A stretch of 64,000 nucleotides of DNA from a virus. The first letter of the stretch is position 1, and every line of letters begins with the position of its first letter. Shown here piece after piece: positions 1 through 54,516 of the stretch. The stretch covers positions 23,640-87,639 of IMG/VR virus record IMGVR_UViG_3300037504_001427; one strand, 5' to 3'. A program made the translations under genes and the position numbers. The notes beneath the pieces are model-generated. The model was not told the DNA's origin. It was given only the letters and a program-made list of their open reading frames with translations, and searched no databases.

Positions 1-45
1 GCAGGGTGAAATAGGCATCCACCCAATAGCGCATGGACTGGGCCT

Positions 46-501
46 TCATATGGAAAGCTCCTCGACGCGCTCGGCATCAACCTCGATGGGTTTCTCCTGT
101 CCCGAGGAAGGAGGGCCGTCGTCGTCCTCGCCTCCATCATCGCCCTCGTCATCTCCGAACTCATCGAAGAACCCGATACACTGCACCACCACCATGTGGC
201 CGGGAGTGAACACGGTGTCGACGACGGTCGATTCATCATCCTCGGAGAGTCCGGAAACGATGGTGTCCAGCGACTCTTCCAGACGGGCATCCTGGGGATC
301 CAACTGGACGACGTGCGGGCACAGCACCGGGAAGGCGGCCACTTGAGGGGCATCGTCCACCAGCGTGAGGGCCAATACGACCTTGTTGCCGACCTCATGG
401 GCCCCGACACTGATGATATCGGCGGTATCGGCGAATCTCGCCACCCGCTTATTGAAGTCGGAGAGGCTTTCTCGCTTCGGATTGAATACCATGATGTTCA
501 T
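46..501 (-). CDS. hypothetical protein with acidic C-terminus
   Basis: 151-aa ORF; ATGA overlap with the upstream gene; AAGGA SD-like sequence. Confidence 0.7.
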   Translation of the reverse strand: MNIMVFNPKRESLSDFNKRVARFADTADIISVGAHEVGNKVVLALTLVDDAPQVAAFPVLCPHVVQLDPQDARLEESLDTIVSGLSEDDESTVVDTVFTPGHMVVVQCIGFFDEFGDDEGDDGGEDDDGPPSSGQEKPIEVDAERVEELSI

Positions 502-1193
502 TGGCGCTGTTCCTTTCGGGCATCGAGTAGTGCCCGCTCATAGGCTGGGCCGAGTTTGCGGAACATCTGCTCCTCGGGAGAGAGGTTCTCTCCGTCGGCG
601 GCAACGGCAAGCCCTTCAAGCTGCGGCTCTTCGGACTCCTCCGCAATGATGATATCAGGACCATATTTCTCTTGTCGTGCCAATTGGCGCGATATGCGGA
701 CGAAGGACGTCTGCTCTGCCCACGAGAGATCCCGCAACTCATCGCCGTGCTCAGTATCCGGCGACGCAAGGAGTATGGCGCCGCAGGTGGTCTCAACACC
801 ATCCCTGCTGACGGTGTTCCGACACAGGATCGCCTCATTCGTGGCGCCATCGGGGAACACGGCAGGACGCACGGCTCGGTAGTCGGCCCGCGTCGCGGCC
901 TCTTGATTACAGCGAGGACACTTCAGGCCGCACTCGGCAATATCGTGCCGGCTGACAAAGTAGGCATCGTGCTCGCAAGGCACAGCGCCCAAAGGATCGC
1001 ACGGAAGATAGATCGGCCCTCCGGCTGCGGCAGGTAGATCCGCTGATTCAGCGCGCTGGCTTCGATGAGACTGAGGGGACAGGCCTCGGACTTCGGCCTC
1101 ACTCTTCGCCTGCAGACCAAGCCTGCGCCTGCCATAGACGACCAGCGCGATAAACTGCAGGATCACAACGATGAGAAGGATCAGTTCGGTCAT
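498..1193 (-). CDS. membrane-anchored putative Zn-binding protein
   Basis: Start ATG at 1193 overlaps the stop of 1190..1549; N-terminal TM (LILLIVVILQFIALVVY); CPRC and further Cys; contains a 70-bp copy of the glycosyltransferase gene. Confidence 0.65.
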   Translation of the reverse strand: MTELILLIVVILQFIALVVYGRRRLGLQAKSEAEVRGLSPQSHRSQRAESADLPAAAGGPIYLPCDPLGAVPCEHDAYFVSRHDIAECGLKCPRCNQEAATRADYRAVRPAVFPDGATNEAILCRNTVSRDGVETTCGAILLASPDTEHGDELRDLSWAEQTSFVRISRQLARQEKYGPDIIIAEESEEPQLEGLAVAADGENLSPEEQMFRKLGPAYERALLDARKEQRQ

Positions 1194-1549
1194 CCGAGCA
1201 CGGCCTTCCAGAACTCGGACTCGTTTGGGCCCCAGGAGCCCAGGCGGGTCCACCCTGTTCCGTCGGCGAGGGCAACGTGCGCGACAACGCCCTCCCGCGT
1301 CACGAGCACCACGCGGAACCCGCACCGCGCGGCGAGTTGCTGACAGACGTGATTCTGCAGTGGTGCGAGGGAGTAATTCTCGGTTTTCACCTCGATCCAT
1401 GCGTGCTTGCCGCGGTTGCCGCAAAGCACATCCGGCAACCCGGCCGTTTGGCCGAAACTGCCAGAAATGGGAGTCCAGAACCCGTGCGGGGCGAACCGAT
1501 CAAACCAGCGGCGGAGGGCAGCCTTGAAAGCGGTCTCAGGAGTCGGCAT
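1190..1549 (-). CDS. VRR-NUC / PD-(D/E)XK nuclease (resolvase-like)
   Basis: E..F, GLPD, WIEVK and L..LQ motifs in 119 aa. Confidence 0.8.
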   Translation of the reverse strand: MPTPETAFKAALRRWFDRFAPHGFWTPISGSFGQTAGLPDVLCGNRGKHAWIEVKTENYSLAPLQNHVCQQLAARCGFRVVLVTREGVVAHVALADGTGWTRLGSWGPNESEFWKAVLG

Positions 1550-1590
1550 GCCGCTATTCTACAGCCATCGGGGTCCGTTACGAACGCATA

Positions 1591-1899
1591 TTATTGGTTA
1601 CTCAAGGTCTCGTCAGCATTGGACTTACGCCCAAACCGCGGTGCAAGCGGCAGATTGACTTCCATGGTGCCTCCCAGCGAATGGAGGACACGCAAGAGAG
1701 AATCCACGGTGACAGAGGTCGGATCCTTGAGCACCCGCCGGGTCGTGGTCAACGAGACTCCGGCCATGACGGAAATCTGCGCGACCGGGATGTGCATCCC
1801 AGCCGCTCTGAGCTGCTGCCGGAACTCGCGGAACGTCTCGCGCACCTCGCTAAGCAGTTGGCGATTCTTCTTCTTAGGAATAGGAAACCGACGGGCCAT
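1591..1899 (-). CDS. XRE-type HTH transcriptional regulator
   Basis: QISVMAGVSLTTTRRVL...VTVDSLLRVLHSLG; AGGAG SD. Confidence 0.7.
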   Translation of the reverse strand: MARRFPIPKKKNRQLLSEVRETFREFRQQLRAAGMHIPVAQISVMAGVSLTTTRRVLKDPTSVTVDSLLRVLHSLGGTMEVNLPLAPRFGRKSNADETLSNQ

Positions 1900-1981
1900 G
1901 GCCGCTCCTACTTGCGTATCATAAAAGAGCGTCCGTGAATTACAAGATCACGCACCGCTCGGGTCATCGGCAAGGCGATGA

Positions 1982-2433
1982 TCATGCAGTGCTCCGAGGG
2001 TCCACCACCATGATCTTGTTGATCCGTTCCGCCAGATCGGGGTGAATGATGGCCACCACGATCTCCTGGTCCTCGATGGCAACCTTGGTCGAAACCATAG
2101 GGGTCTGGGCCGTCTGCCTAGCCGTCTCATAGGCGTCCAGGAGCGGCCCCAGGTCAGTCATCATACCGTGTGTCCTCGGAGCGGCATCATCACGCGCGCA
2201 CTTCCGCAGAGACGCTAGGTCGAAACGGGATACGGAGACGCCTTCCACGAATCCGCACCCGGCGACCCAGACGGTGCAGCACTGGTCACTCGCCGGCTGG
2301 TCCATAATGCGGACCTCGCGTCCGATCAGCGGGGCCCAGAAGGAATTGGCTCGATTCTGCTCGGTATCGGCCACGGGCGCACGCAAGATTTCTTTCCCGT
2401 GTGCGAAGCCGCAGCCGTAGTCGTTGCCACCGC

Positions 2434-2449
<16 letters not shown>
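1982..2449 (-). CDS. hypothetical protein beginning with an MRYPVG array head
   Basis: MRYPVGGGNDYGCGF followed by non-repetitive sequence; coupled to the array. Confidence 0.5.
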
Positions 2450-5200
<2,751 letters not shown>

Positions 5201-5201
5201 G

Positions 5202-5468
5202 TCATTCTTCCAGTGCCTGAAGCTCTCTCATCTCATGGATCAGCTTGGCTCGGGCTTCCGTGGCCTCTCTTACCGAGTGGAAATTGATCTTCTGCCAACC
5301 GTTGAGATCTGGCACGCCGCAATGTGTACACGGCACGCCCAGCATACGGAGACGAAAGAACGCGCTGCCATAATCGCCGTCTCGGTATCCAGGCTTGGTG
5401 TTGACCACGCTGACCATGGAGACGTGATCCAGATTAACGGCCACATTGCCTACTTCGACAACGTACAT
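5202..5468 (-). CDS. hypothetical protein (cargo within array)
   Basis: ATG at 5468 (MYVVEVGN) with GAAAGGAAG upstream, just downstream of the tRNA. Confidence 0.6.
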   Translation of the reverse strand: MYVVEVGNVAVNLDHVSMVSVVNTKPGYRDGDYGSAFFRLRMLGVPCTHCGVPDLNGWQKINFHSVREATEARAKLIHEMRELQALEE

Positions 5469-5485
5469 GCACGACTTCCTTTCTA

Positions 5486-5558
5486 TGGCGGGGGAGGGAC
5501 TCGAACCCTCGACCTTCGGATTATGAATCCGACGCGCTACCGCCTGCGCCACCCCGCA
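5486..5558 (-). tRNA. tRNA-Met(CAU), initiator (fMet)-like
   Basis: TGCGGGGTGGCGCAGGCGGTAGCGCGTCGGATTCATAATCCGAAGGTCGAGGGTTCGAGTCCCTCCCCCGCCA folds as a cloverleaf; CAT anticodon; unpaired 1:72; no encoded CCA. Confidence 0.9.
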
Positions 5559-5590
5559 TTGTGTGTGTGTGTGTGTGAATCTGATAATGC

Positions 5591-6620
5591 TCATCGCCTG
5601 CCTGCCACTGTGCCGAGCCCGTAGCCGTAGCCGTCGCCGTAGCCGAAGCCGCAGCCGTAGCCGTTGCCGTAGCCGTTGCCGTAGCCGTAGCCGGTGCCGT
5701 CGCCGTCGCCGTAGCCGTCGCCGCCACCGAAGCCGTAGCCATTGCCGCGGCTGTCGCCGTTGCCGTAGCCGTTGCCGTAGCCGTTGCCGTAGCCGAAGCC
5801 GAAGCCGCCGTCGCCTACTGGATATCTCATCGCCTGCCCGCCACTGTGCCGATCCCGTAGCCGTAGCCGTAGCCGTAGCCGAAGCCGCAGCCGTAGCCGT
5901 TGCCGTAGCCGTTGCCGTAGCCGTAGCCGGTGCCGTTGCCGTTGCCGTTGCCGTAGCCGTTGCCGAAACCGTAGCCGTTGCCGTAGCCGTTGCCGTAGCC
6001 GAAGCCGTAGCCGTTGCCGTAACCGAAGCCGAAGCCGCCGTCGCCTACTGGATATCTCATCGCCTGTCCGCCACTGTGCCGTAGCCGTAGCCGAAACCGA
6101 AACCGAAGCCGTTGCCGGTGCCGGTGCCGTAGCCGTCGCCGAAACCGTAGCCGTCGCCGAAACCGTAGCAGTTGCCGTAGCCGTTGCCGTAGCCGTAGCC
6201 GCAGCCGTAGCCGAAGCCGTCGCCAAAGCTGTAGCCGTAGCCGTAGCCGTCGCCGTTGCCGTTGCCGTAGCCGTTGCCGTCGCCGTTGCCGGTGCCGTAG
6301 CCGTTGTCGCGGTCGTCGCCGAAGCCGTGGCCGAAGCCGTAGCCGCCGTCGCCTACTGGATATCTCATCGCCTGCCCGCTACTGTGCCGAGCCCGTAGCC
6401 GTAGCCGTCGCCGTAGCCGAAGCCGCAGCCGTAGCCGTTGCCGTAGCCGTTGCCGAAGCCGTCGCCAAAGCTGTAGCCGTAGCCGTAGCCGTAGCCGTCG
6501 CCGTTGCCGTAGCCGTCGCCGTCGCCAAAGCTGTAGCCGTAGCCGTTGTCGCGGTCGTCGCCGAAGCCGTGGCCGTAGCCGTAGCCGTAGCCGCCGTCGC
6601 CTACTGGATATCTCATCGCC
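5591..6620 (-). repeat. MxYPVG Gly-rich mini-ORF array, block B
   Basis: Coupled units 5591-5830, 5827-6060, 6057-6368, 6365-6616. Confidence 0.95.
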
Positions 6621-7171
6621 TGACGACGAACCCGGCGGTCCTCGGCGACGACACCGGCGGACAAAACGTCTCGGAGGCACGTCCACTGCGGCCAGGTTGC
6701 TCGTCCCAAGTAACTGCTCAAGTAATCAGGCTGGCCGAGATAGCCATCCTCACCGCCGTCGTCAGGGAGGTCTCGGATCTTGTCCTCGATGGACAGGGTG
6801 CCGGTTGCGACGGGCTCGGCAAAGCCGTCCAAACAGGGCGCCAGGTCCGCCAAGATAGTAGCCGGAATCGGATTGTTCTCGAGATCCAGATCATCGGGAT
6901 GCAAGGCAGGACCATCGTCAACAGCGACGTCTTTCTGCAAGATACCATCCAAGGCTCGGGCAAAGAGCGCTGGATGTTGAATGGAGCCATCAGCGTTCAG
7001 GTAAACGTCCGATAGAGCGGTCTGTCGTTTGTCCAGGTCATGAGCGGCAACTCGGAACTTGAGTATCCAGCGCGCTAGGCATATCCGCGTACTGGCAGAA
7101 AAAACATAGGGCTCACGCATCTGGCCCAGAGCTGCGAGCGTCCGTCGTACAGTATGTCCACTTAGTTTCAT
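6365..7171 (-). CDS. hypothetical phage protein fused in frame to an MRYPVG Gly-rich unit
   Basis: MKLSGHTVRR... reads through VRRQA-MRYPVG without a stop. Confidence 0.55.
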   Translation of the reverse strand: MKLSGHTVRRTLAALGQMREPYVFSASTRICLARWILKFRVAAHDLDKRQTALSDVYLNADGSIQHPALFARALDGILQKDVAVDDGPALHPDDLDLENNPIPATILADLAPCLDGFAEPVATGTLSIEDKIRDLPDDGGEDGYLGQPDYLSSYLGRATWPQWTCLRDVLSAGVVAEDRRVRRQAMRYPVGDGGYGYGYGHGFGDDRDNGYGYSFGDGDGYGNGDGYGYGYGYSFGDGFGNGYGNGYGCGFGYGDGYGYGLGTVAGRR

Positions 7172-7202
7172 AAGGCCCAAGCTATTGGATCCGGCAATCG
7201 TG

Positions 7203-7271
7203 TCAAGCGTCGCGGTAGCCGAGGCCGTAGCCGTCGCTGAAGCCGTAGACGTCACCTACTGGATATCTCAT
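7203..7271 (-). CDS. short MRYPVG unit (22 aa)
   Basis: MRYPVGDVYGFSDGYGLGYRDA with an intact junction. Confidence 0.5.
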   Translation of the reverse strand: MRYPVGDVYGFSDGYGLGYRDA

Positions 7272-8343
7272 CGCGGCCCTCCACTGTGTGGTAACCGACG
7301 CCGTCTGGGACATAAGGTATTCCAGCAATGTCGAGAGCATCTTTGTAGCCCCAATCAAATATAGCGGCATGCCACATTTTCGGGTTGTCATGATAAAGAG
7401 ACTGAAGCGGTGTGGGGCCGGGGCGCACATGGGAGCCGAACATGCAACAGACACAGCCAGACGCCCCTCCTTTGGGCAGGATTGGGTAGATATTGTGTTG
7501 TTTTAGGTATCCGGCGATTTCGTCTTTAGTCCAAAAGCTCAGTGGATGGCAAAGCCACTCACGGTGCGCAGTGGAGTAATAGAGTGCTCCGCGTTGGAGC
7601 CACATCATTTCGCGCGAACGCGATTCCTGTACGCGAACGCCTGTGAAATGGCCCAATATTCCTAGCTTCTTGTTTAAGCGGTGCATTGGCTTTTTCTTCA
7701 GTTCATCACAACAACGGCTTCCCGCTAAACCAATCCCGGCTTGGCGAAGCAGTTCAGCCGCCGCATGTAACTCCTGCGGAACGCGGAGTAAATGTGCGCG
7801 ATTCCCAGTGGCCACATATTTGTCCACTTTTTGCCCTATGACCTTGGACCATAACGGAACGCCGACTTTTTGCCAAACCTCACGCGGACGAAGAGCCGGG
7901 TATGCGACGTGCAACGAAACGCCCCTCTCCCTCAGCCATTGCTTCCAATGTTTTATCTGCGCCTTGGTCTCTGGATATTCCAGGCGGGTATCGCTCGTGA
8001 TGTGCGGGATCGCGAGCTTCAGTCGCTCGACCATAAGATGTGACAGCACGGTGCTGTCTTTCCCGCCGCTATAACTCAGCGCCCAGCAGTGCGGCAAGCG
8101 ATTAAACGCCGAGTCAATTATTTTCTCGGAGAGCGCTAGCTTCTTTTCAAACGAGAGTTTCAAGCCCGCGTTGCGCATCTCCCCACGAACGGACAGCACA
8201 TCACGCTGGTCCTGCGTCTTGTGCTTGCTTTGCCAGCCGCTCGGAAGATCCATCTCAATCCACGCGCAATCGGCTGGATCACCGGCTTCATAGGCGGCTA
8301 TCTGGTCAAGCGTTAGTCCGCGCCCGTCACCTGGATATCTCAT
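7252..8343 (-). CDS. PAPS reductase / PP-loop family protein
   Basis: SYSGGKDSTVL, CCDELKKKP, GVRVQESRSR, HPLSFW and GCVCCMFG motifs; starts MRYPGDG and ends in the array junction. Confidence 0.85.
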   Translation of the reverse strand: MRYPGDGRGLTLDQIAAYEAGDPADCAWIEMDLPSGWQSKHKTQDQRDVLSVRGEMRNAGLKLSFEKKLALSEKIIDSAFNRLPHCWALSYSGGKDSTVLSHLMVERLKLAIPHITSDTRLEYPETKAQIKHWKQWLRERGVSLHVAYPALRPREVWQKVGVPLWSKVIGQKVDKYVATGNRAHLLRVPQELHAAAELLRQAGIGLAGSRCCDELKKKPMHRLNKKLGILGHFTGVRVQESRSREMMWLQRGALYYSTAHREWLCHPLSFWTKDEIAGYLKQHNIYPILPKGGASGCVCCMFGSHVRPGPTPLQSLYHDNPKMWHAAIFDWGYKDALDIAGIPYVPDGVGYHTVEGRDEISSR

Positions 8344-10340
8344 CGCGGCCACTCATCTATCCACGAAAAGCGATCACCACGCAAGAGGCGTCCGATAACC
8401 TCATAAAACACATGGGTGTTATGGAATCCACGGCGGCGATTGCGATTATTGCCGCGGAAGATAACCACCTGTATTCCGCATTGTTTGCAAATGTCGCACC
8501 CACAGGAATCCCAGGGGCGCTCCTCCAGCACTCGGCGAATGCGGTCTTCCGTTCCGGGGCGTTTACCAGCAAGGAGCGTATCGTATTCGACCAGATGTCG
8601 AACCAGTGTTGGGGGCGGCGATGTTTTATTGAATGTACCATAGGCGGCCAGTCCGGTCAAACAATCATGCTCGAGCTTGACGAGGGCATTTTGGGTTATT
8701 GCCCCATCTTCGAGTAGGCGTTTTATCCGGAAACTACTGGGGCACATCTTGCTAGGATTCTTGGGATCTTCCTTGACAGCTTGGGGAACACGGATCGCCG
8801 GGTACCAACCATTTTCCGTGAGATAATTGAGGTTATTGCCTAACCATGCTTTGCGCAGCGCGGATGTACTGTCGATACTGGTAACGCCCAGATCGGCAAA
8901 GGCGCGAATAGCAGCGAGGCGTGCCAATCCGAAGAGGTGGATGCGCAGCGACGTTGGCACCACTGCACGAACGGCCTTGACGATTTCGATCACTTCCCTC
9001 GTCGTTCTGCGCACCAAGCCGCCAAGGCCAATGTAGTCGTATCCCATTTCAACATATTGCACCGCAGCTTTGGCGTAGGACTGCGGGTCCCATCCCTGAA
9101 CAGCGCCGATAGGCGTCCAACTCAACCCGCGCTTGCGGTGCAGAGCAAGAAAGTCGCGCGCGTTTCTTATTGTCAGATCGTAGCGATATTTGTTTTGATC
9201 CTCAAAGGCAGGCACCACGAGGTGGTCCACCGAGACCCCCATGTCGAACCCGAGGCGCGTATAGTAATCAGCCACGTCCTCTGTGGTGTAGGGTGGATCC
9301 TTCTCGGTGATATAATCGAATGCGCCGCAATCGCCCATGACCGTGTAGTCGCGGGGGACGCGCAGGTAGCGATGGATGCCCAGGGCGTTAACGGCCTTGG
9401 CCTTTTTTTTGCCCTTTTCGGCCACTACGCGCGAAACCAGAATTCCATCGTAGCGGGGCCCTGCACCGTACATCTGGTGCGCGTAGACTTGGTTGCCCCA
9501 ATGACCACGCCCCCCGGAATGAGTGTCGTGTTCGAAATCGTAATTCAGGTCGACCTGATCATCCCATTCTGGAATGAAGTAGCGGAGGCTGCGCGATGCG
9601 GACTCTTTGTGCCAGGCCTCGGAGATCGCTATCACGCGATCTAGCTCCCGCCGACCGTCTTCAAGTGATGGCAGAAGATCATCAATCCGCTGCCAGTATG
9701 CTGGTCCCTTTTCGGCATCCATGGTCATCAACATCCGCCTCACCAGTTCACCCTTCAAGCCCACCAGGGCGCAAGAGAACCGTTTCGCCTCAGGATTGGA
9801 GAGGGTGACATAGCGCATGCCAGCGATTTCGGGAAGGCGTTTGCGGATGGCGGCGCCGCAGAAAGCGATCACCGGACCAGCGCAGATGACCGATGCATCC
9901 AGGGCGCAGGCCTCCAGGTACGGGTCGCCCAGCAGCAGCAGGGTCAGATCCGCCTTGTGGGCTAGGAGTTTGCGTATGGCCTGCGGTACCTGCAGAAAAT
10001 CGGCCCACTCGCGCAGGGCGGGTTTTCCCATGCCCTGGAAAGTGACCTCGTAAGGCGCGATGATCTGATCGCCGGGGATCAGTCCGTAGCCTGCGGAGAG
10101 GATATGCAGATCGACCCAATAATCGCCTTTGGCCCGCAGGGCCTGCACGCCACGCATCAGACGCCGGTGTTGCTGTCCGGTGTACATCTCCTCGGCCGGC
10201 AACAGATAATCCTTCAGTCCTGCTTCCAACTTTTCGAATTTCTTGGTACCCAGCAGTCGGAAATCGTCCTGGATGAGCTGCGCGTCCGGCTTGTGGGCCT
10301 TTTGGCCGGTGCAGGAGGTAATGATGAGAATGCGTTTCAT
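8340..10340 (-). CDS. dpdA: DpdA-type deazaguanine DNA transglycosylase with an N-terminal DUF6884/YaaA-like domain
   Basis: TGT-like motifs GDCGAFDY, VSVDH, GAVQGW, IGLGG, IHLFG, SIDSTS; CxCxxC...RRGFHN Zn site; N-terminal ITSCTGQK...MYTG...ILSAGYGLI; adjacent to folE2 and queC. Confidence 0.85.
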   Translation of the reverse strand: MKRILIITSCTGQKAHKPDAQLIQDDFRLLGTKKFEKLEAGLKDYLLPAEEMYTGQQHRRLMRGVQALRAKGDYWVDLHILSAGYGLIPGDQIIAPYEVTFQGMGKPALREWADFLQVPQAIRKLLAHKADLTLLLLGDPYLEACALDASVICAGPVIAFCGAAIRKRLPEIAGMRYVTLSNPEAKRFSCALVGLKGELVRRMLMTMDAEKGPAYWQRIDDLLPSLEDGRRELDRVIAISEAWHKESASRSLRYFIPEWDDQVDLNYDFEHDTHSGGRGHWGNQVYAHQMYGAGPRYDGILVSRVVAEKGKKKAKAVNALGIHRYLRVPRDYTVMGDCGAFDYITEKDPPYTTEDVADYYTRLGFDMGVSVDHLVVPAFEDQNKYRYDLTIRNARDFLALHRKRGLSWTPIGAVQGWDPQSYAKAAVQYVEMGYDYIGLGGLVRRTTREVIEIVKAVRAVVPTSLRIHLFGLARLAAIRAFADLGVTSIDSTSALRKAWLGNNLNYLTENGWYPAIRVPQAVKEDPKNPSKMCPSSFRIKRLLEDGAITQNALVKLEHDCLTGLAAYGTFNKTSPPPTLVRHLVEYDTLLAGKRPGTEDRIRRVLEERPWDSCGCDICKQCGIQVVIFRGNNRNRRRGFHNTHVFYEVIGRLLRGDRFSWIDEWPR

Positions 10341-11119
10341 CCGGAGCGCTCCCATTCGATAATGGCGAAAGCGTCGTGGTTGTGGATCGATTCGTGGTTG
10401 TCGGCTTCGACTCGAAACCAGGTCGTGCGCGGGTCGTCCATCAAGTGGGCGGCAATGTCCCGTACCACATCCTCGACGAACCGCGGGTTGTCGTAGGCCT
10501 GCATCGTGACGTGACGTTCGTCTGCGCGCTTGAGGATCGGATAGACCGGAGCCGAGGCACAGGCGCCGACCAGCCCTACGACCTCTTCGATCCAGATGAT
10601 CTGGGGGCTGCGAATCTCAACCACGACGTCACCGCGTTGGTTGTGCGCGCCGTAATCACTGATGGCCTTGGAGCAGGGGCACAAGTTGGTCACCGGAATG
10701 CGAACGCCGAGGACGAAGTCGAAGGCCGACCTGTCTACGGTCGCATCGAACCAGCAGTCGTAATCCATCAGGCCGGTCATGCCGGTGGCGGGGGCGGCGC
10801 GTTCGATGAAGTACGGGAAATCGACACGAACCTGGGCCCGCTCAGCGCCAAGCCGTTGTTGGAGGTCCGCCAGCAGCGCGGGAATGGTACGCATGGTCAG
10901 CTCGCCCCGATGCTCCTCGAGCGCCTGCAGGAACCGACTCATGTGAGTGCCTTTAAACCGATGCGGCAGAGCCACCGAGAGCGAGACCTGGGCCACGGTG
11001 TGCTGAGGATCACCGCCCTGGGTCATCACTGTGATGGGGTAGCGCAGGTCCCGCACGCCAACCCGGTCGATGGCGATGCCACGCTGATCTTCACTGGCTT
11101 GAGTATCGGCAAGATTCAC
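10337..11119 (-). CDS. folE2: GTP cyclohydrolase IB (FolE2)
   Basis: IDRVGV, KGTHMSRF, LCPCSKAIS, HNQRG, NPRFVED and ESIHNHDAFA motifs. Confidence 0.95.
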   Translation of the reverse strand: MNLADTQASEDQRGIAIDRVGVRDLRYPITVMTQGGDPQHTVAQVSLSVALPHRFKGTHMSRFLQALEEHRGELTMRTIPALLADLQQRLGAERAQVRVDFPYFIERAAPATGMTGLMDYDCWFDATVDRSAFDFVLGVRIPVTNLCPCSKAISDYGAHNQRGDVVVEIRSPQIIWIEEVVGLVGACASAPVYPILKRADERHVTMQAYDNPRFVEDVVRDIAAHLMDDPRTTWFRVEADNHESIHNHDAFAIIEWERSG

Positions 11120-11796
11120 GAGGTGCCTCCTAGGCGAACCAAGAGTGGGTCAGGAATACCGGCCTCGGCAAAGCCCTTCGCCCGCAGTTGGCAGGCTGGG
11201 CACTGCCCGCAGGGCGGCACCTGGCCGTTATAGCAGGTGTGGCTGTGGGCCAGCAGATCCAGCGCGCCAACCTCTTGAGCCAGTCGCACCGAGTCGGCCT
11301 TGCTCAAGTGCATGAGCGGGGTGTGGATGGTGATGCCATGCTCCATCCCTGCACGGATGGTGCCTTGGAGCGACTGCATGGTGGTTTCCCGGCAATCCGG
11401 ATAACCCGAGTAGTCGGTCTGACAGACGCCGGTAACCAGCTCGGTCACCTTAAGTTGGTAGGCCCAGGCAGCAGCAAGGGTCAAGAATACCAGGTTGCGG
11501 CCGGGGACGAAGGTGTTGGGCAGACCACGTTCAGATTCGTCACCCACCGATTGACCCTCAACAGGATCGGAGTCGGCCAGCATGGCTGTTCCGCCGAGGG
11601 CAGCTAAGCTGCTGACGGGGACGATGCGGTGTTGAGTGACGCCTGCCTTTTCGGCAATGATCTTGGCAGACTCTAGTTCGGCCCGATGACGCTGACCATA
11701 GTCGAAGGTGATAGCGTGCAGATTCTGGTAGCGGGAGCGCGCCCAGCCCAGACAAGTGGTCGAGTCCTGTCCGCCAGATAATACCACCACGATCAT
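11116..11796 (-). CDS. queC: 7-cyano-7-deazaguanine synthase QueC
   Basis: SGGQDS, FDYGQRH, VPGRN, YPDCR and TCY...CGQCPAC motifs. Confidence 0.95.
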   Translation of the reverse strand: MIVVVLSGGQDSTTCLGWARSRYQNLHAITFDYGQRHRAELESAKIIAEKAGVTQHRIVPVSSLAALGGTAMLADSDPVEGQSVGDESERGLPNTFVPGRNLVFLTLAAAWAYQLKVTELVTGVCQTDYSGYPDCRETTMQSLQGTIRAGMEHGITIHTPLMHLSKADSVRLAQEVGALDLLAHSHTCYNGQVPPCGQCPACQLRAKGFAEAGIPDPLLVRLGGTS

Positions 11797-12295
11797 CTAT
11801 CTTCCCTCCACCGTGCTAATGCCGCCGCCGTGGCCGAAGCCAAAGCCGTGGCCGAAGCCGTAGCCGAAGCCGTGGCCGTCACCTACTGGATATCTCATCG
11901 CATCATCTCCAGGCCTCCACTGTGCCGTAGCCGTTGCCGTGGCCGTAGCCGTTGCCGTAGCCGTTGCCATAGCCGTCGCCGTAGCCGTAGCCGTAGCCGT
12001 TGCCGTAGCCGTCGCCGTAGCCGTAGCCGTCGCCGAAGCCGTCGCCGAAGCCGTAACCGTAACCGTAGCCGTAGCCGTAGCCGTCGCCGAAGCCGTAGCC
12101 GTCGCCGAAGCCACCGCCGAAGCCGAAGCCGTAGCCGAAGCCGTGGCCGAAGCCGAAGCCGTCACCTACTGGATAGTTCATCGCCCACCTCCCACTGTGC
12201 CGAAGCCGTCACCTTCATCGCCCACCTCCCACTGTGCCGTAGCCATCGCCGTGGCCGTGGCCGTAGCCGTTGCCATGTCCTGCTGGATATCTCAC
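11797..12295 (-). repeat. MxYPVG array, block C
   Basis: Units 11797-11898 and 11903-12181, a deleted unit at ~12178-12218, and 12215-12295 (GTG start). Confidence 0.9.
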
Positions 12296-12762
12296 CGCCT
12301 GCCGCCGGCCTCCTGATGTGGCTCAAAGAGGTAGACCTGCACCTCTGGTTCGCGCTCGAAGGCTGTCACGATCAGGGGTTTGACCTGCTGCCAGTTCAGC
12401 CCACCAAGGCCGCAGCCGAGTGGCGGAATGGCAATCGACTGAATCTGGAAGGTCTGCACGACGGCAATCAGGTCATCCAGTCCGGTGGCGATGTCGTCCA
12501 GTTGGCTGCGCTGTCGCCAGTGGTCCTTGGTCGGGAAATTGATGATCAGCGGCGACTTGGCGCTGGTGTGCACGAACATCTTGCCCAGCTTGACCTGCCT
12601 CCGGTTGCAGGCGTCGCGGTAAGCAACGAAGTTGTCGGGCCAGGCATTCTTGAACTGGAGCGCCAGGCCCTTGCCCATCACGCCAACGGTGTTCACTGGG
12701 TTGACCAGCGCCTGAACCCGTGGTGCCCACGCCAAGATGTCGCCAGAGCAGGACTCGATCAC
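12292..12762 (-). CDS. macrodomain protein, DarG-like ADP-ribosyl glycohydrolase
   Basis: GDIL, LVNPVNTVGVMGKGLALQFK, IINFPTK.HWR and SIAIPPLGCGLGGLNW motifs; GTG start overlaps an MRYP-stop mini-ORF. Confidence 0.88.
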   Translation of the reverse strand: MIESCSGDILAWAPRVQALVNPVNTVGVMGKGLALQFKNAWPDNFVAYRDACNRRQVKLGKMFVHTSAKSPLIINFPTKDHWRQRSQLDDIATGLDDLIAVVQTFQIQSIAIPPLGCGLGGLNWQQVKPLIVTAFEREPEVQVYLFEPHQEAGGRR

Positions 12763-12769
12763 GGATACC

Positions 12770-14905
12770 TCATCGCCTGCCTGCCGCTGTGCCGAGCCCG
12801 TAGCCGTAGCCGTCGCCGGTGCCGTAGCCGGTGCCGTAGCCGGTGCCGTAGTCGGAGCCGGTGCCGGTGCTGTCGCCGTCGCCGTCGCCGTAGCCGTCGC
12901 CGAAGCCGTCGCCGAAGCCGTAGTCGGAGCCGTGGCCGTAGCCGTAGCCGTCGCCGAAGCCACCGCCGAAGCCGAAGCCGTAGCCGAAGCCATAGCCGAA
13001 GCCGAAGCCGGCACCTACTGGGTATCTCATCGCCTGCCCGCCACTGTGCCGAGCCCGAAGCCGAAGCCGTATCCGTTGCCGAAGCCGTCGCCGTAGCCGT
13101 CGCCGCTGCTGTTGCCGTTGCCGTTGCCGTTGCCACCACCGAAGCCGTCGCCGTTGCCGAAGCCGTCGCCGAAGCCGTCGCCACTGCTGTTACCGCGACT
13201 GTCGCCGTTGCCGTTGCCGTTGCCGCAGCCGTAGCCGAAGCCGAAGCCGTCACCTACTGGATATCTCATCGCATCATCTCCAGGCCTCCACTGTGCCGTG
13301 GCCGTGGCCGTAGCCGTTGCCGAAGCCGTCGCCGTCGCCGTAGCCGTCGCCGTTGCCGTTGCCGTAGCCGTCGCCGTCGCCGTAGCTGTCGCCGAAGCCG
13401 TATCCGTTGCCGAAGCCGTCGCCGTTGCCGTTGCCGTAGCCGTCGCCGTCGCCGTAGCCGTCGCCGTAGCTGTAGCCGTAGCTGTCGCCGTGGCCGTAAC
13501 CGTAGCTGTCGCCGCTGCCGTCACCTACTGGATAGTTCATTGCCCACCTCCCATCCGTAGCCGTCACCTACTGGGTATCTCATCGCCTGCTCGCCGCTGT
13601 ACCGAGCCCGAAGCCGAAGCCGTATCCGTTGCCGAAGCCGTCGCCGTAGCTGTCGCCGTAGCCGTTGCCGTTGCCGCGACTGTCGCCGTTGCCGTTATCG
13701 TTGCCGCAGCCGTAGCCGAAGCCGTAGCCGCCACCTACTGGATATCTCATCACCCACCTCCCACTGTGCCGTGGCCGTTGCCGTTGCCGTCGATGTCGCC
13801 GTAGCCGTTGCCGTAGCCGGCGCCGAAGCCGTAGCCGTAGCCGAAGCCGGCGCCGTCGCCGGAACCGTCGCCGAAACCGTCGCCGAAGCCGGAGCCTTCG
13901 CCGTCGCCGTCGCCGTCGCCGTAGCCGTAGCCGTCGCCGTAGCCGTCGCTGTCACCGAAGCCGTCGCCGAAGCCGAAGCCGCAGCCGTCACCTACTGGAT
14001 ATCTCATCGCATCATCTCCAGGCCTCCACTGTGCCGTGGCCGTAGCCGTTGCCGTTGCCGAAGCCGTAGCCGAAGCCGTAGCCGAAGCCGTGGCCGTAGT
14101 CGGAGCCGTAGCCGGTGCCGTAGCCGTAGCCGTAGTCGTCGCCGAAGCCGCCAAATCCGTCGCCGAAGCCGCCGCCGCCGTAACTGTCGCCGAAGTCGGA
14201 GCCGTCGCCGAAGCCGTAGCCGTCGCCGAAGCCACCGCCGAAGCCGAAGCCGTAGCCGAAGCCGTAGCCGAAACCGAAGCCGTCACCTACTGGATAGTTC
14301 ATCGCCCACCTCCCACTGTGCCGTGACCGTTGCCGTTGCCGTCGATGTCGTCGTAGCCGTGGCCGAAGCCGAAGCCGTAACCGTAGCACGCCGGCAGGCG
14401 CATCGCAAAAACGGTGAATGATGCGTCGCCGAAGTCGTAGCCGAAGCCGCAGCCGTAGCCGAAGCCGTCGCCAAAGCTGTAGCCGTAGCCGTAGCCGTCG
14501 CCGAAGCCGAAGCCGCAGCCGTCACCTACTGGATATCTCACCACCTGCCCTCCACCGTGTCGTAGCCGCAGCCGTCGCCGTCGCCGAAGCCGCAGCCGTA
14601 ACTGTCGCCGTAGCCGAAGCCGTGGCCGTTGCCGTCGCCGTTGCCACCACCTACTGGATATCTCATCGCCCACTTCCAACTGTGCCGTGGCCGCGGCCGT
14701 TGCTGTTGCCGCAGCCGTAGCCATCGCCGTCGCCGTCGCCGTAGCCGTAGCCGTCGCCGTAGCCGTCGCTGTCACCGAAGCCGTAGCCGTAGCCGTAGCC
14801 GTCGCCGTAGCCATCGCCGTCACCGAAGCCGTCGCCGTAGCCGTCGCCGTCACCGAAGCCGTAGCCGAAGCCGCCACCTACTGGATATCTCATCGCCCAC
14901 CTTTC
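12770..14905 (-). repeat. MxYPVG array, block D
   Basis: Units 12770-13030, 13027-13269, 13274-13540, degenerate ~13537-13583, 13580-13750, 13750-14007, 14012-14302, 14299-14541, 14538-14666, 14663-14893. Confidence 0.95.
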
Positions 14906-15014
14906 GCTGCTGGCGCCGGCTTGAGCCACCATCCACGCTATTGACCGTGACGGCTGAGTCAAGCCGCTCTGGCGCTCGTGTTTCAGCGGATTTCACCGAT
15001 CACGCTTCTTACTG

Positions 15015-15500
15015 AATCGGCGACATTTCCATTGTTAACTCTTACTAAGAAGACTAAACAAACCTTCTCCAAAGAAGTTACTGTTCTAAGGGCGAATTTG
15101 ATCTCATTCGGTTCTGCATGAGGGTCTCCTTCAGTTTAGAATGAGATCAAACCCCTTCTGTATACCCAGCTTTTAGAAAAATAATCAGTGATTATACTCT
15201 GTAGAAGATGTAACCTACCTTGGGGAATGTGGTTATAATTTACTATGGCATACATAAAGCTGTGATTACGGGCTGCTTAGGGCGTGATTCTGGCCAAATT
15301 CCAGTGATTATTAAGCTCTCTTTAACAGTTTTGTGAGCTATTAGCGCTTTTGCATGAGATCGACTATTTTTAACAGATCCGTTAAATTTGGTTTTTATGT
15401 AGGAGTAATCATGTGTAGCAACACCTGATTTGGTAGCGTTTTTTTTACTGAACTGTTAAAAAGAAGGGGCCGTTTTTCCTTGCAGTTAAGAAAACCAGTG
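15015..15500. promoter_or_regulatory. AT-rich divergent intergenic region, candidate replication origin or promoters
   Basis: No long ORF; clearly AT-rich; inverted repeats at 15097-15109/15139-15151, 15181-15195 and 15321-15330/15451-15460; next to the primase-helicase. Confidence 0.55.
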
Positions 15501-15553
15501 GACACTGCTGGGGATCCCTCCTACGGTCTTCCTCTTCCGTCGGGGTACTGCCT

Positions 15554-18328
15554 ATGCGCGATCTCGCAGCCGCGGTCTTTCCTGACCGCGAACCACTCGT
15601 GTTGACCTTCAAGGACAAGCATGACGATCCGGCCCTCCTTGTAGACCTTCGTGCTCCCCCGAGCCATCCGTATCAGTACCTGACGTGGGGACTTCCGGGG
15701 TGGCTCCGGTATGAGGCGGAGCGCGGGGCCGTCGCTCCGGGCACGCAGTGGGCTCGTGCGGCCCACTTGCGACGCAAGCGACAGTACCCTGCAGGAACAG
15801 CAGAGGAGGTGCGGCATACCCGAACAGGCCTAGCTGCCTCCGGTCCGCGGGAAGAGTATGGCGAGGGGATACCCTATCCTATCATGGTGGCCGAGGTTGA
15901 TTATCTGCTCGTACAGCCTGGGCAGGATGATCCTGAGTTGCGCCGACTGCAGCGAAACGCACTGGCTTACGCGCTCCAGGCTGCCAACTTCCCTTTCACA
16001 GCCCTGATCGACTCCGGAGGCAAGTCGATCCATGTCGTTATTCGCCTCCTACCTGAGTCCGGCCAGCAGTTGAGTGCGGCAGAATCAGACAAACAGATAG
16101 CCGAACAACGGGCCGGTCCCCGAGGGCGTCTTTTGGCCTATTTAATGGGGATTTTGCTTGGTAAATTGGATGTCGGGGTGTTCAAAATGTCAGGGAAGTG
16201 TACAAAACTTTGTCGTATGCCGAACGGATGGCGAGGCAGAATTAGACAAGATGTGCTTGCTGTTGGACGAGCCTACACGCTCAATGAAGTGCTGACCTAT
16301 TGCTGGGAGCGGGTAGTCCCTGAGGTGCGACAGGAAGCGCAGCAGCGCGGCACATGGGAGCCTGAGAACGACCTTATCCTTTCTGATTTGCGGCGCGACC
16401 TCCTGCGCCCCCATCGGCCCGGCGAACGGGGCACGCACTGGATGCACGTTGCCAAGAAGCTATCTGCCACCGGGATCGTGGGACCAGTGTTCCATCGTCG
16501 TCCCAGTCCGAATTTGGGACCGGCGCACAACTGGACTGCCCCGCCTCTTTGGTGGGTGGCTGCTTATGCCTTTCACCACTACAGCGACGGATGGTTCTTT
16601 TCTTTCAACGACACGGACTGGACAGACGAGGCCGAGCGTAATCGGTGGTTCACATATGCGGAAGCAACTGAGGCAGTGGAAGAAGGCCGGTACAGCGGTC
16701 GCCCAGGACACGATCGTCAGCGAGAGCAGGAAGCCGACGCCATTTATGCTCGAATGCGTGCGAATGCTGCCCAGACTGCGATGGAGGCCGATAGTGACGC
16801 AGCGGCTGAGAAGGCGATCAAGAAGCAAGCCAGCGCTCTGGAGAAGGCCCTTAAGTCTGGGGAGGATGAAAACCCCATCGAGGTGGCCGTTGTCCGTTTC
16901 TTCCAGAATTACGAGGGCGGAATTCTCCAACAGCCTGAGGGAACTCCATTACCGCTGGCGTATTCGGTGACAGAGGGGCAGTGGAAGCGCTTTACCGGCC
17001 GATGCTGGGAGGTCATTCCGCACGAGCCGTTTGAGGCCATTTTGCGGCACCATGCTTTCAGCACAGCCCCAACGACGCGCCAATTCAATGATGTTCTGCG
17101 GGAGGTCCAGCGCGACAAGCGCCTGCGATATGAGCAGCCATGGATACCCAATCTGCACGCTACGGTGTTCTCTAACGGGACGCTGTACTTCTCCGAACGC
17201 TTCGATGTCGTGCATTGGTATGAGGGAGTGTTCCGCCTCGAGGATCGTGTCATGAGTGTGTTGCCTCACCCGTATGTCGAGGGGGCCGAGGTCCCGAAGA
17301 TATGGACCGATTGGGTGGATTACTTCGTCGGCGGTGACAACGCGAAGGCGGCGTGCTTGCAGGAGTTCGCCGGGTATTGTCTGGTGAATGGAATGCCGAA
17401 GCACAAGTTCTTAATGATCGTCGGTGATGGAGGCAACGGCAAAGGCACGTTCAAGCACGTCCTCGCCACAGCCCTCGGCGAACACAATTGTACCTCCGTG
17501 GTTCTCGCAGAGTTGGCGAAGGACTTCAACCGGGCAATGCTGCCTGGGAAGATGCTTGCTGTGGACGATGAGGGCGAGGTGTTTTCTGAGGGGACATCAC
17601 GCACCGCTGGATCTGGAACAGTCAGTTATCTGAAACGCTGGATAGGCGGTGATTCAGTACAGATCAATCAGAAATACAAGGACGTCACGTCTTCTATCCT
17701 GACAGCCAAGCTGTTGGTGACCACGAATACATACCCCCGCCTCGTGGATCGCTCGGAAGGGCTCTGGCGCCGGCTTATCATGTTCAGGGTGGATGCCAAG
17801 CCGGCCAACGAGATGCCGGATGTTTATAAACTCTTGGTCCCGCACATGGTTGGGGTGGTCAAGTGGATGGTTATCGGCCTGCAGCGACTGCTCGCGAATG
17901 GACAATTCACGGTGTCGGAGCAGATGTTGGAGGAGATCAATGAGTACCGCACTGAACAGGATTCGATTGCTCTATTCCGCTCTGAGTGCATAGTGCCGCT
18001 AGATAATAGTGGGCACAGTTCAGATGTGCGAACGGCATATGCTGTCTACAAGGAATTTTGCGCCACTAATGGTATACATCCTGTTAGAAGAGTCGAGTTC
18101 AGCAAACACATGGGCGCTGTACGGGGACCTACTGTGCGGAGAAGTGTTTATTGTGTCTGGCAAGTTCCTGTAGAGAATGCTACTGCCGCCCATCCTAATT
18201 ATGTACTTAGGGGGGTCAAGTGTTTGGACTCTCTTGTTCGTCATCCACATACCCTTGTCACATATAAACCAACTATCGCTAGCGATACTATTCCCTTTCG
18301 TCCCGACTTAAAGAAAGCGCAGGTTTGA
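15554..18328 (+). CDS. primase-helicase (AEP/RepB-like primase + D5/P4-type SF3 helicase)
   Basis: IDSGGKSIHV and LCRMPN primase motifs; GDGGNGKGT Walker A, VDDE Walker B, TTNTYP, GLWRRL. Confidence 0.88.
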   Translation: MRDLAAAVFPDREPLVLTFKDKHDDPALLVDLRAPPSHPYQYLTWGLPGWLRYEAERGAVAPGTQWARAAHLRRKRQYPAGTAEEVRHTRTGLAASGPREEYGEGIPYPIMVAEVDYLLVQPGQDDPELRRLQRNALAYALQAANFPFTALIDSGGKSIHVVIRLLPESGQQLSAAESDKQIAEQRAGPRGRLLAYLMGILLGKLDVGVFKMSGKCTKLCRMPNGWRGRIRQDVLAVGRAYTLNEVLTYCWERVVPEVRQEAQQRGTWEPENDLILSDLRRDLLRPHRPGERGTHWMHVAKKLSATGIVGPVFHRRPSPNLGPAHNWTAPPLWWVAAYAFHHYSDGWFFSFNDTDWTDEAERNRWFTYAEATEAVEEGRYSGRPGHDRQREQEADAIYARMRANAAQTAMEADSDAAAEKAIKKQASALEKALKSGEDENPIEVAVVRFFQNYEGGILQQPEGTPLPLAYSVTEGQWKRFTGRCWEVIPHEPFEAILRHHAFSTAPTTRQFNDVLREVQRDKRLRYEQPWIPNLHATVFSNGTLYFSERFDVVHWYEGVFRLEDRVMSVLPHPYVEGAEVPKIWTDWVDYFVGGDNAKAACLQEFAGYCLVNGMPKHKFLMIVGDGGNGKGTFKHVLATALGEHNCTSVVLAELAKDFNRAMLPGKMLAVDDEGEVFSEGTSRTAGSGTVSYLKRWIGGDSVQINQKYKDVTSSILTAKLLVTTNTYPRLVDRSEGLWRRLIMFRVDAKPANEMPDVYKLLVPHMVGVVKWMVIGLQRLLANGQFTVSEQMLEEINEYRTEQDSIALFRSECIVPLDNSGHSSDVRTAYAVYKEFCATNGIHPVRRVEFSKHMGAVRGPTVRRSVYCVWQVPVENATAAHPNYVLRGVKCLDSLVRHPHTLVTYKPTIASDTIPFRPDLKKAQV

Positions 18329-18329: not shown

Positions 18330-19205
18330 ATGCCAACGCCTATTTCTCATTCGCAAATAGAAGAGTTCAACCGATGCCAGCGCCGATGGGCGTACAGGAA
18401 GGTTCTTGGGCTTTCTCCAGATGGCGAAGACGAAACCGCCTTGCACTATGGCGACGCAGTTCACCTCGGCTTGGAGGACATCGGTCGTTCGTATCTCGAG
18501 GGCACGACGTCGACGCAGCCGCAAGCCGCACTCCTGAAGGTCCGCGAACGACTGGCGCAGCTTGGCGAACACTCATTGGTCGATCTCGCCGAGAGTCATC
18601 TCCAGGGCTTCGTACAGCACTTCCTGCCAGGGTTCCTCAGCGAGTGGCGGATCACCGCGGTGGAGCGGGAGGTCGAGCACGTCGTCGGAGAGATGCACTG
18701 GCGCGGCAAGATCGACCTGGAAGCCATCAATCAGCGCACCGGGGTGCATGCTGTCTTCGACTACAAGACGTCCAGTGCGCAGTATGCCCGCGAGTTGACG
18801 CGCTCGATCACGTCTTCGCACCAGTTCGCCAATTACTGCATCAGCCACTGGCGCCGGAATGGGAGCTGGCCAGGCGCTGTCGGTTACATCTTCTTGGGGA
18901 AGCCCAGAACCAAGACGCCACAGAACATGTGCCGACCCGAGAATTTCTTCATGGAAGTGCGGGATGTGTCTCCGCAGATTGCTCAATTCGCCATCAGTGT
19001 GGAGCAGGCAGACAGGGCAGTGACGACTATTATGGCCCAGATCCGCTCTGGCGTCGGGTACTATGGCGCCGGGTTCCTCGATCATGTGCCGGCTGACTTC
19101 GGCGCCTGTTCAAAGTTCGGTTCCACCTGCGGGTTCAGCGCTGGGTGCCATGCAGGAAATCCCTTGCATCAGCAGATCGCTGAGAGACAACGGCGCAGGA
19201 CATGA
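18330..19205 (+). CDS. PD-(D/E)XK (RecB/Cas4-like) exonuclease
   Basis: ISHSQI...CQRRW, G..VH, GKIDL, FDYKT, C-terminal Cys cluster. Confidence 0.85.
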   Translation: MPTPISHSQIEEFNRCQRRWAYRKVLGLSPDGEDETALHYGDAVHLGLEDIGRSYLEGTTSTQPQAALLKVRERLAQLGEHSLVDLAESHLQGFVQHFLPGFLSEWRITAVEREVEHVVGEMHWRGKIDLEAINQRTGVHAVFDYKTSSAQYARELTRSITSSHQFANYCISHWRRNGSWPGAVGYIFLGKPRTKTPQNMCRPENFFMEVRDVSPQIAQFAISVEQADRAVTTIMAQIRSGVGYYGAGFLDHVPADFGACSKFGSTCGFSAGCHAGNPLHQQIAERQRRRT

Positions 19206-22596: not shown

Positions 22597-22610
22597 TAGG
22601 AAGGGAAAGC

Positions 22611-49171: not shown

Positions 49172-49492
49172 TCATCGTCTGCCCTCCACTGTGCCGAACC
49201 CGTAGCCGTAGCCGTAGCCGCGGCCGTTGCCGTTGCCGTAGCCGTAGCCGTCGCCGTCGCCGTCGCCGAAGCCGTGGCCGCCGCCGTAGCCGCCGCTGTC
49301 ACCGAAGCCGTAGCCGTAGCCGTCGCCGTAGCCGTCGCCGTAGCTGTCGCTGTCACCGAAGCCGTAGCCGTAGCCGTTGCCGTCGCCATCGCCGTCACCG
49401 AGGCCGTCGCCGTAGCCGTCGCCGTTGCCGTCGCCGTAGCCGTCACCGAAGCCGAAACCGTAGCCGTCGCCGAAGCCTACTGGATATCTCAT
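49172..49492 (-). repeat. MRYPVG Gly-rich unit
   Basis: MRYPVGFGDG...GTVEGRR. Confidence 0.9.
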
Positions 49493-54487: not shown

Positions 54488-54516
54488 CGCTCACTCCCGA
54501 AATCTTGGTCCCGAAG

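Follow-up and report, generated by a model that had tools for sequence, protein, structure and literature searches.

The 64,000-nucleotide (nt) stretch of DNA analyzed in this work (hereafter, the window) corresponds to bases 23640–87639 of an 87,639-bp virus record of IMG/VR (IMGVR_UViG_3300037504_001427), and it harbors arrays of small (Gly-X)n micro-genes that are chained to one another by a repeated coding junction and in which a range of accessory genes (hereafter, cargo) are embedded. Most of this cargo stands in the place of a repeat core, and several of the cargo genes carry pieces of the junction at their ends. Coordinates given below are those of the window unless the genome is specified. 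The 87.6-kb record, which has direct terminal repeats, is that of a double-stranded DNA phage, and its genes include those for a DNA polymerase of family A, a primase-helicase, an SNF2 helicase, a PD-(D/E)XK exonuclease, and a UvrD-like helicase. The sole public sequencing run that holds DNA of this virus is a tidal-flat metagenome, which is probably its source. The arrays are distributed as follows:

1982–14893, minus strand: array block A, a chain of about 30 (Gly-X)n micro-genes (MRYPVGDG...GTVEGRR) in which cargo is embedded
49172–51396, minus strand: blocks B and C, one unit (49492–49172), a truncated C5-methylase gene, and four units (51396–50527)
54517–57137, minus strand: block D, a helix-turn-helix (HTH)-Gly-X fusion, units, an HExxH protein, and two more units

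Micro-gene arrays and the coding junction

Each head in these arrays opens an open reading frame (ORF) of 40–110 codons with the pattern MRYPVGDG-(Gly-X)n-GTVEGRR, and Gly occupies every second residue of the units (47% Gly, followed by Tyr, Asp, Phe, and Asn). The junction between units comprises the tail of one micro-gene, with its Shine-Dalgarno sequence, and the head of the following one, the two being joined by an ATGA in which stop and start overlap. The 17-mer ATGAGATATCCAGTAGG is present in 42 copies (allowing up to 3 mismatches), all of them on the minus strand, against an expectation of 0.12, and a looser scan recovers 44 heads in four blocks (viz. 14893–1982, 49492–49172, 51396–50527, and 57137–54517). 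The -4 (ATGA) overlap from a preceding unit reaches 26 heads, and the tail codons GTG GAG GG form a Shine-Dalgarno sequence 7–10 nt upstream of the next start. Block A is read leftward from a 660-bp gap that precedes a divergent primase gene at 15554.

The codons of the head are near-invariant (TAT 30/31, CCA 31/31, GTA 29/31, and AGA 22/31) and they are rare ones, as CCA, GTA, and AGA account for 16, 9, and 5%, respectively, of their codon families genome-wide; the unit cores, opposite to the head, prefer TAC over TAT (331:16). Hence, with rare codons fixed in its head, the junction is conserved at the nucleotide level. The unit cores are 72–88% alike, and no near-identical tract (at least 70 nt at 93% identity or higher) and no identical tract longer than the junction was found between units, so that the units give no sign of recent exchange.

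The interval 11797–14302 contains a higher-order repeat in which a type-III tail is followed by an MNYPVG unit that ends in a GTVEAWR tail and then, after a gap of 4 nt, by an MRYPVG unit. Three copies of this N-unit/WR-tail module (heads at 14302, 13540, and 12181) share 85–88% identity over ~365 nt, and each of the later copies is preceded by a truncated unit, which points to segmental duplications with breakpoints in cores. The core of one unit (14541–14299) includes the following insert, at the ends of which there is no obvious microhomology:

14388–14423, minus strand: a 36-nt exact copy, in frame, of genome positions 13075–13110, which belong to a distant plus-strand gene of the same virus

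The presence of this piece of a distant gene indicates that the cores accept foreign DNA.

Cargo genes of block A

The genes and related features embedded in block A are the following:

12292–12762, minus strand: macrodomain gene in a core slot (Pfam Macro, 1.4e-21)
8340–11796, minus strand: queC (11796–11116), folE2 (11119–10337), and a gene for a DUF6884::TGT/DpdA-like protein (10355–8340; hereafter, dpdA), joined by ordinary overlaps
8325–8354, minus strand: upstream copy of a private junction variant, GAG(T)GGCCGCGATGAGATATCCAG(-)GTGACG, flanking the PAPS-reductase gene
7252–8343, minus strand: PAPS-reductase-family gene (Pfam PAPS_reduct, 4.6e-15; phrog_424)
7250–7281, minus strand: downstream copy of the private junction variant, flanking the PAPS-reductase gene
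6365–7271, minus strand: a truncated 22-codon unit (7271–7203), then ORF 7171–6617, which continues in frame across a junction and on into a complete unit (6616–6365)
5202–5594, minus strand: ORF 5594, 130 amino acids (aa), with its start on a tail ATGA and 5 nt of head retained; a tail fragment of 16 nt and a head at 5185 come next
1982–2449, minus strand: ORF 2449, the last gene of block A, in which a head and ~17 Gly-X codons are joined in one gene to a unique domain of 137 aa

The ORFs 7171–6617, 5594–5202, and 2449–1982 have no Pfam or PHROG match. The clearest case of embedded cargo is the PAPS reductase, which is an in-frame chimera of head, cargo, and tail. Its start, MRYPGDG, is the unit head minus one codon and comprises seven head codons, and its end includes a unit tail (DGVGYHTVEGR, ~11 codons) in frame; this tail is 1 nt shorter, so that the frame runs past the ATGA to DEISSR-stop and the gene ends in GYHTVEGRDEISSR. 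Homologues of this protein from three viral contigs (44–45% identity) start after MRYPGDG and end 18 residues before its C-terminus, and both end pieces are absent from an alignment with the homologues from contigs L086 and L088. The sequence GGCCGCGATGAG is found only at the two flanks of this gene (the second at 7278) in the whole genome, and the flanks thereby form a ~30-nt direct repeat with two small indels. The PAPS-reductase homologues in other phages adjoin helicase or primase genes and not dpdA. The possibility that the gene was torn from an ancestral helicase neighbor, as in L086, was considered and rejected, as the UvrD-like helicase of the present genome (57811–59379) is not orthologous to that of L086.

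The macrodomain gene is similarly bounded by junction sequence. Upstream of it 11 nt of head are kept, in the form of ATG AGG TAT CCG TGA (MRYP-stop) at 12773–12759, and the gene starts with a GTG at 12762. It ends with ...EAGGRR at 12292, where the last residues (GGRR) and the stop are derived from a tail and the TGA lies inside the GTGAGATATCC of the next head, which is of the type GTGAGATATCCAGCAGG. Phage macrodomain homologues cover residues 1–150 of the 156 residues, and the last ~6 residues, which include the GGRR end, lie beyond all of the alignments.

The largest cargo is the queC-folE2-dpdA block, whose products match QueC (9.5e-74), GCHY-1 (FolE2; 1.5e-91), and, for the DpdA-like protein, DUF6884 and TGT in Pfam. 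The ATG of queC (11796) abuts a unit tail, ...STVEGR-TAG, with GGAGGG 7 nt upstream, and dpdA terminates with ...WPR on the TGA of a junction; no junction motif was found inside the block. A viral contig (L009) carries the order QueD-QueC-FolE2-x-DpdA with no units at all, and its DpdA is 57% identical to that encoded here. Thus, the three genes, being found together in a contig that lacks units, are one conserved, inherited block that was not assembled gene by gene at junctions, which counts against the cassette platform that the preliminary description of this DNA had proposed. In phages, modification of DNA with 7-deazaguanines involves a DpdA-type transglycosylase and the preQ0 genes FolE, QueD, QueE, and QueC (Hutinet et al., 2019; PMC6884629). 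In comparison with this module, QueC, FolE2, and the DUF6884::TGT protein are present here, whereas QueD and QueE are missing, and QueD is present in L009. Profile searches of the whole genome detected neither QueD (PF01242) nor the radical-SAM QueE (PF04055), and synthesis of preQ0 would therefore need host enzymes.

Cargo genes of the other blocks

Three genes for C5-cytosine methylases and two further proteins are associated with blocks B to D:

51404–52993, minus strand: dcm1, C5-cytosine methylase (Pfam DNA_methylase, 3.4e-56)
53471–54520, minus strand: region of dcm2, C5-methylase (54487–53471), with its own GGGAG 8 nt upstream
49536–50354, minus strand: dcm3, truncated C5-methylase of 271 aa, matched over the first 195 of 324 profile positions
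57137–56511, minus strand: fusion of an HTH-domain protein with the core and tail of a Gly-X unit
55727–55047, minus strand: HExxH protein (weak matches), which ends inside degenerate units with the unit remnant read out of frame

The gene dcm1 terminates in the remnant of a unit tail, which supplies its last ~8 codons and its stop but is not read in the frame of the unit. A head does follow dcm1, at a distance from its stop (51404) of 7 nt (ATG 51396) or 10 nt (ATG 51393) and not of 8 nt as had been described. The third methylase, dcm3, may be truncated or split. ORFs at 5594, 49175, 50530, and 54520 begin on a tail ATGA, as first described, and the last three can be specified further: the ORF at 49175 is a 22-codon bridge to the next real gene at 49114, that at 50530 (50530–50345) encodes a hydrophobic leader of 61 codons and overlaps the start of dcm3, and that at 54520 (54520–54491) is a 9-codon mini-ORF through which dcm2 is reached. 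An exact repeat of 21–25 nt is common to the region of the HTH-fusion gene (56787–56811) and the spacer after dcm2 (53388–53436), in which it is tandemly duplicated.

The bias of the cargo toward DNA modification and counter-defense is borne out, as 8 of the ~15 embedded ORFs encode a macrodomain protein, QueC, FolE2, a DpdA-like TGT, a PAPS reductase, or a C5-methylase (three genes). The embedded cargo thus includes DNA-modification genes and probable anti-defense genes.

Positions of the cargo boundaries

We have mapped 19 boundaries between array and cargo, their positions being scored partly by eye, and 12 of them fall within -35 to +25 nt of a junction ATG, where 26% would be expected (binomial p ~6e-4). 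On the 5' side of the cargo, the piece of head that is kept measures 4 nt (queC, 50530, and 54520), 5 nt (ORF 5594), 11 nt (macrodomain gene), or ~20 nt (PAPS reductase); retained heads of ~54 and ~66 nt were also recorded, and four upstream boundaries lie in a core. On the 3' side, the tail that is kept measures 6 nt (ORF 7171–6617 and dcm3), 7–10 nt (dpdA), 11 nt (macrodomain gene), 16 nt (ORF 5594), or 33 nt (PAPS reductase), and a longer piece of core plus tail (more than 38 nt, ranging to more than 40 nt) is present in three cases. The start of the cargo is at, or no more than 25 nt from, a junction ATG in 6 of 10 cases. The layout is nonetheless constant, viz. tail, head fragment, cargo, tail fragment, and next head, with most cargo in place of a core. 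Every sequence feature that the preliminary description had listed to place the cargo boundaries of the macrodomain, PAPS-reductase, and queC genes inside the motif is present. Mapping of the breakpoints relative to the GATATC core, which it had suggested as a check, revealed no fixed position: the clustered boundaries involve many different bases, none of them fixed, and GATATC is retained at only 3 of 10 upstream cargo boundaries.

Variants of the junction provide additional information. The sequence GGCAGGCAGGCGATGAG is confined to two junctions, viz. those that precede the macrodomain gene and ORF 5594, and GTGAGATATCCAGCAGG is likewise confined to two, one following the macrodomain gene and the other 42 kb distant, at 54798. 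Three types of tail are found both with the common head and with an N-type head (ATGAAC, in which two linked nucleotides are changed); hence, tails and heads have been reassorted within ~10 nt of the ATG.

The joins between cargo and array are also present in an independent assembly of the tidal-flat run, in which contigs (covering 5135–5634, 6593–10513, 10484–11904, and 12173–12816) extend from each cargo end into the neighboring junction, without any difference from the record and at an even depth of ~70x. No alternative joints with more than 24 nt on the short side were found in this run, which is kept as contigs that drop rare variants, and the loose contig ends examined are other parts of the same genome. 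Elsewhere in the window, a 74-nt stretch is 98.6% identical between 1020–1093 and 41435–41508, two distant places outside the arrays.

Related sequences, comparable arrays, and recombinases

Searches of viral contigs for the junction gave no match to an exact 21-mer and one chance match to a codon-degenerate 24-mer, and the 17-mer matched 69 metagenome contigs and 23 genome contigs, each of them only once and by chance. The primase, used as a query for related loci, retrieved nothing. A similarity search with one unit protein returned only generic Gly-Tyr low-complexity proteins that have neither head nor tail, and literature searches found nothing on (Gly-X)n micro-gene arrays.

Two unrelated viral contigs do contain (Gly-X)n arrays (L079:3642–5414 and L080:9191–11497), each with its own ~35-nt junction and coupled stop/start; these junctions are private to their contigs and unrelated in sequence to the present one. 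In L079, a three-ORF insert starts with TTG exactly at the place of a unit ATG, and after it come a tail fragment of 26 nt and then the next junction; in L080 a 115-nt insert lies between two copies of the junction. The similar slots in these two contigs indicate that the slot layout recurs in such arrays and is no accident of this genome. The three arrays thus have in common tandem small Gly-X genes, coupled junctions, and foreign ORFs or inserts bracketed by junction copies, and they differ in that the present genome has far more units and far more cargo and gives no match to the partner genes of the other two. Those partners are a DUF6948 gene, which adjoins the arrays of both L079 and L080, and, in L079, a gene for a MoxR-like AAA+ protein. 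The MoxR-like gene was not found in the present genome, nor was there a match to DUF6948, a weak negative since the control for the latter had no match anywhere.

The coordinates of further genes considered here are the following:

18330–19205: PD-(D/E)XK exonuclease gene
57811–59379: UvrD-like helicase gene
Genome 21986–22867 (L081:1171–2052), minus strand, 773–1654 nt before the window start: serine recombinase of 293 aa (Resolvase domain, 4.9e-22)

The arrays had first been described as free of an integrase, and this is accurate for tyrosine recombinases, as PF00589 has no match in the 87.6-kb genome (the control matched 14 of 14 genomes); it does not extend to the serine recombinase, which is encoded shortly beyond the window, on the same strand as block A, ~3.6 kb downstream of its last unit, and beside an XRE-type HTH gene. 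It may be that the phage is temperate. A single-strand annealing protein was not identified.

Discussion

The explanation that we consider to be, on balance, the most probable is that the arrays are recombination-prone, dispensable regions, which have received accessory genes by ordinary recombination and have retained them in core slots through translational coupling. It builds on the slot layout, the chimeric gene ends, the reuse of the Shine-Dalgarno sequence and ATGA, the conservation of the head at the nucleotide level, and the reassortment of tails and heads, all of which are directly observed. Also in its favor are the clustering of boundaries near the junction ATG, the private junction variants that are shared between sites, the 36-nt insert in a core, the comparable slots of L079 and L080, and the absence of a tyrosine recombinase and of an attC-like fold. 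According to this explanation, a single micro-gene family would have built the arrays, and its junction, made up of a tail with a GGAGG-like Shine-Dalgarno sequence, the ATGA, and a head with A/T-ending codons, would drive translation from gene to gene. Accessory genes would have arrived by homologous, homology-assisted, or illegitimate recombination and not through a dedicated cassette enzyme, and the survivors would mostly be copies with ends no more than ~35 nt from a junction. Such cargo would inherit a ribosome-binding site and start on one side and would hand ribosomes to the next head on the other; ends near junctions would keep this coupling, so that the cargo would end up where a repeat core would otherwise be. 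The junction had been proposed to serve both as recombination homology and as a signal for ribosome binding and coupling. The second role agrees with the Shine-Dalgarno sequence and stop/start overlap that cargo genes reuse, and coupling may well drive the translation of the cargo; as to the first, the 35–45 nt of junction homology may have guided some of the insertions. The insertions themselves were probably rare and old events rather than the output of a running cassette system.

Several considerations weigh against this explanation. The scoring of boundary positions was done in part by eye, and 7 of the 19 boundaries are in cores and not at junctions. The clustering at the junction may be due to selection alone or to homology-guided crossover, which the data do not separate, and whether the unit or the cargo was first at each site is not readable from the final structure. 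No relative with the junction is present in the collections searched. The order of the units comes from one metagenome assembly, of which the independent assembly of the same run confirms only the joins from cargo to first junction. Lastly, one observation that favors the explanation, viz. the wider spread of GC content at third codon positions in the cargo (0.59 to 0.82, compared with 0.705 +/- 0.039 for replication and other reference genes), which is consistent with mixed origins, rests on 15 reference genes.

A possible but distinctly less probable explanation is that the junction is an active connector that works at the level of translation, and that homologous recombination between its copies repeatedly excises, inserts, and swaps head-cargo-tail cassettes, both inside the genome and among co-infecting relatives, the Gly-X cores being the default filler. 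The precedent for this is provided by the PeSL (promoter-early stem-loop) mobile cassettes in the hyperplastic regions of T4-type phages (Arbiol et al., 2010, PMC2839356; Comeau et al., 2014, PMC4122927), which are the closest published system to that described here. In PeSL cassettes, a repeated expression signal is proposed to be the preferred recombination homology and to allow a flanked gene to be expressed wherever it lands, and their shuffling was demonstrated by comparison of close relatives and by PCR of mini-circles (PMC2839356). Both repeats flank non-essential accessory genes in a plastic region and include the Shine-Dalgarno sequence and start of the downstream gene. However, the PeSL is intergenic and consists of a sigma-70 promoter and a terminator hairpin over ~100 bp, whereas the present junction is coding, putatively acts by translational coupling, and has no promoter, terminator, or hairpin signal; in positions 1–16000, neither sigma-70-like promoters nor intrinsic terminators are in excess. 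Further, shuffling has been demonstrated for the PeSL, whereas the present case is known from the layout of one genome.

Within that layout, the ~30-nt direct repeat of a private variant around the PAPS reductase is what a single-crossover insertion of a circle would leave, and exchange at junctions would also account for the reassortment of tails and heads across the ATG, for the rare variants that cargo-side junctions share with junctions 7–42 kb away, and for the position of the PAPS reductase next to dpdA and not beside the helicase or primase genes that its homologues adjoin. The recurrence of slots in L079 and L080, the mini-circles of the PeSL precedent (PMC2839356), and the PD-(D/E)XK exonuclease gene at 18330–19205 are also in keeping with such activity. 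On the other hand, the breakpoints are not uniform, and with cores that are only 72–88% alike and no identical tract beyond the junction, exchange would have been neither recent nor frequent. The lack of internal junctions in the deazaguanine block, which is syntenic with L009, and the lack of an identified single-strand annealing protein also speak against a running platform.

The converse possibility, that the units are the invaders and that a duplicating micro-gene colonized an older accessory operon (deazaguanine module, methylases, and macrodomain gene), appears unlikely. It would fit the existence of queC-folE2-dpdA as an older module that is free of units in L009 (57% DpdA identity), and also the local unit subfamilies and tandem duplications, such as the N-unit/WR-tail module at 14302, 13540, and 12181. 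However, insertion of whole units predicts that a head should follow a resident gene and that a tail should precede the next one, whereas the cargo has a tail and a head fragment before it and a tail fragment after it. In addition, unit codons are present in frame in cargo proteins, and the adjacency of the PAPS reductase and dpdA is a new one.

We regard it as very unlikely that the unit-derived ends are functional peptide tags, which would send the cargo to where the Gly-X proteins go (for example, an assembly or the virion). In-frame unit residues are present in five cargo proteins (viz. the PAPS reductase, the macrodomain protein, ORF 2449, the HTH fusion, and ORF 7171–6617), but a stop on ATGA requires in-frame entry into the tail, and this alone explains most of the in-frame cases. 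Moreover, the unit remnant is out of frame in dcm1 and in the HExxH protein, and queC, ORF 5594, and dcm2 have no unit residues.

The preliminary description had also likened the arrangement to an integron. In integrons, gene cassettes bearing attC sites are handled by the integrase IntI and an attI site. The resemblance lies in the same-strand arrays of apparently promoterless genes, the recurrent element between the genes, and the enrichment in adaptive functions. The unit-shaped slots, the head/tail reassortment, the direct repeat at the PAPS reductase, and the arrays of L079 and L080 support the preliminary interpretation in part. The analogy with integrons fails with respect to the scattered breakpoints and the absence of a tyrosine recombinase, a folded attC-like site, a fixed crossover base, and a single insertion point by a promoter, and most of the "cassettes" are paralogues of one micro-gene. 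Folding of six junctions as single-stranded DNA gave z-scores of -1.87 to +1.41, with no shared hairpin and no attC-like fold. It is accordingly highly improbable that the serine recombinase, a Resolvase-domain protein encoded on the same strand just past the array operon, carries out integron-like, site-specific recombination at the junction, even though the latter includes a GATATC palindrome: no crossover position is fixed, GATATC is lost from most of the upstream boundaries, hardly any dyad symmetry is present in the junction apart from 6 bp, and the gene is situated beside an HTH regulator, as would be the case for a phage integrase or resolvase. Misjoining of cargo and units in a repeat-rich metagenome assembly, which might be suspected as the junction exceeds short k-mers and the unit order derives from a single assembly, is scarcely credible in view of the independent contigs that bridge every cargo end at ~70x with no differences and the direct terminal repeats of the record.

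The present arrangement differs in the nature of its connector, which is formed by the coding seam between members of an amplified micro-gene family, and in that the captured enzymes carry the terminal residues of this family. The way in which phages acquire and reshuffle counter-defense and DNA-modification genes without the dedicated enzymes of mobile elements is still accounted for largely by the old "linker" idea, of which PeSLs are the one worked example, and the case described here gives a clean picture of a linker in the form of a coding stop/start junction. As it stands, the layout is well documented and the mechanism is unproven. A broader proposition, that the junction is a true translation-level connector, that cassettes, some of them with DNA-modification and anti-defense genes, are exchanged within and between phage genomes with Gly-X cores as disposable filler, and that every phage (Gly-X)n array is an expressing landing pad, is tentative and, in our estimation, doubtful. 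If exchange at the junctions were demonstrated, connector-mediated mosaicism would no longer be limited to transcription signals but would also include translational coupling, and (Gly-X)n arrays would gain at least one role.

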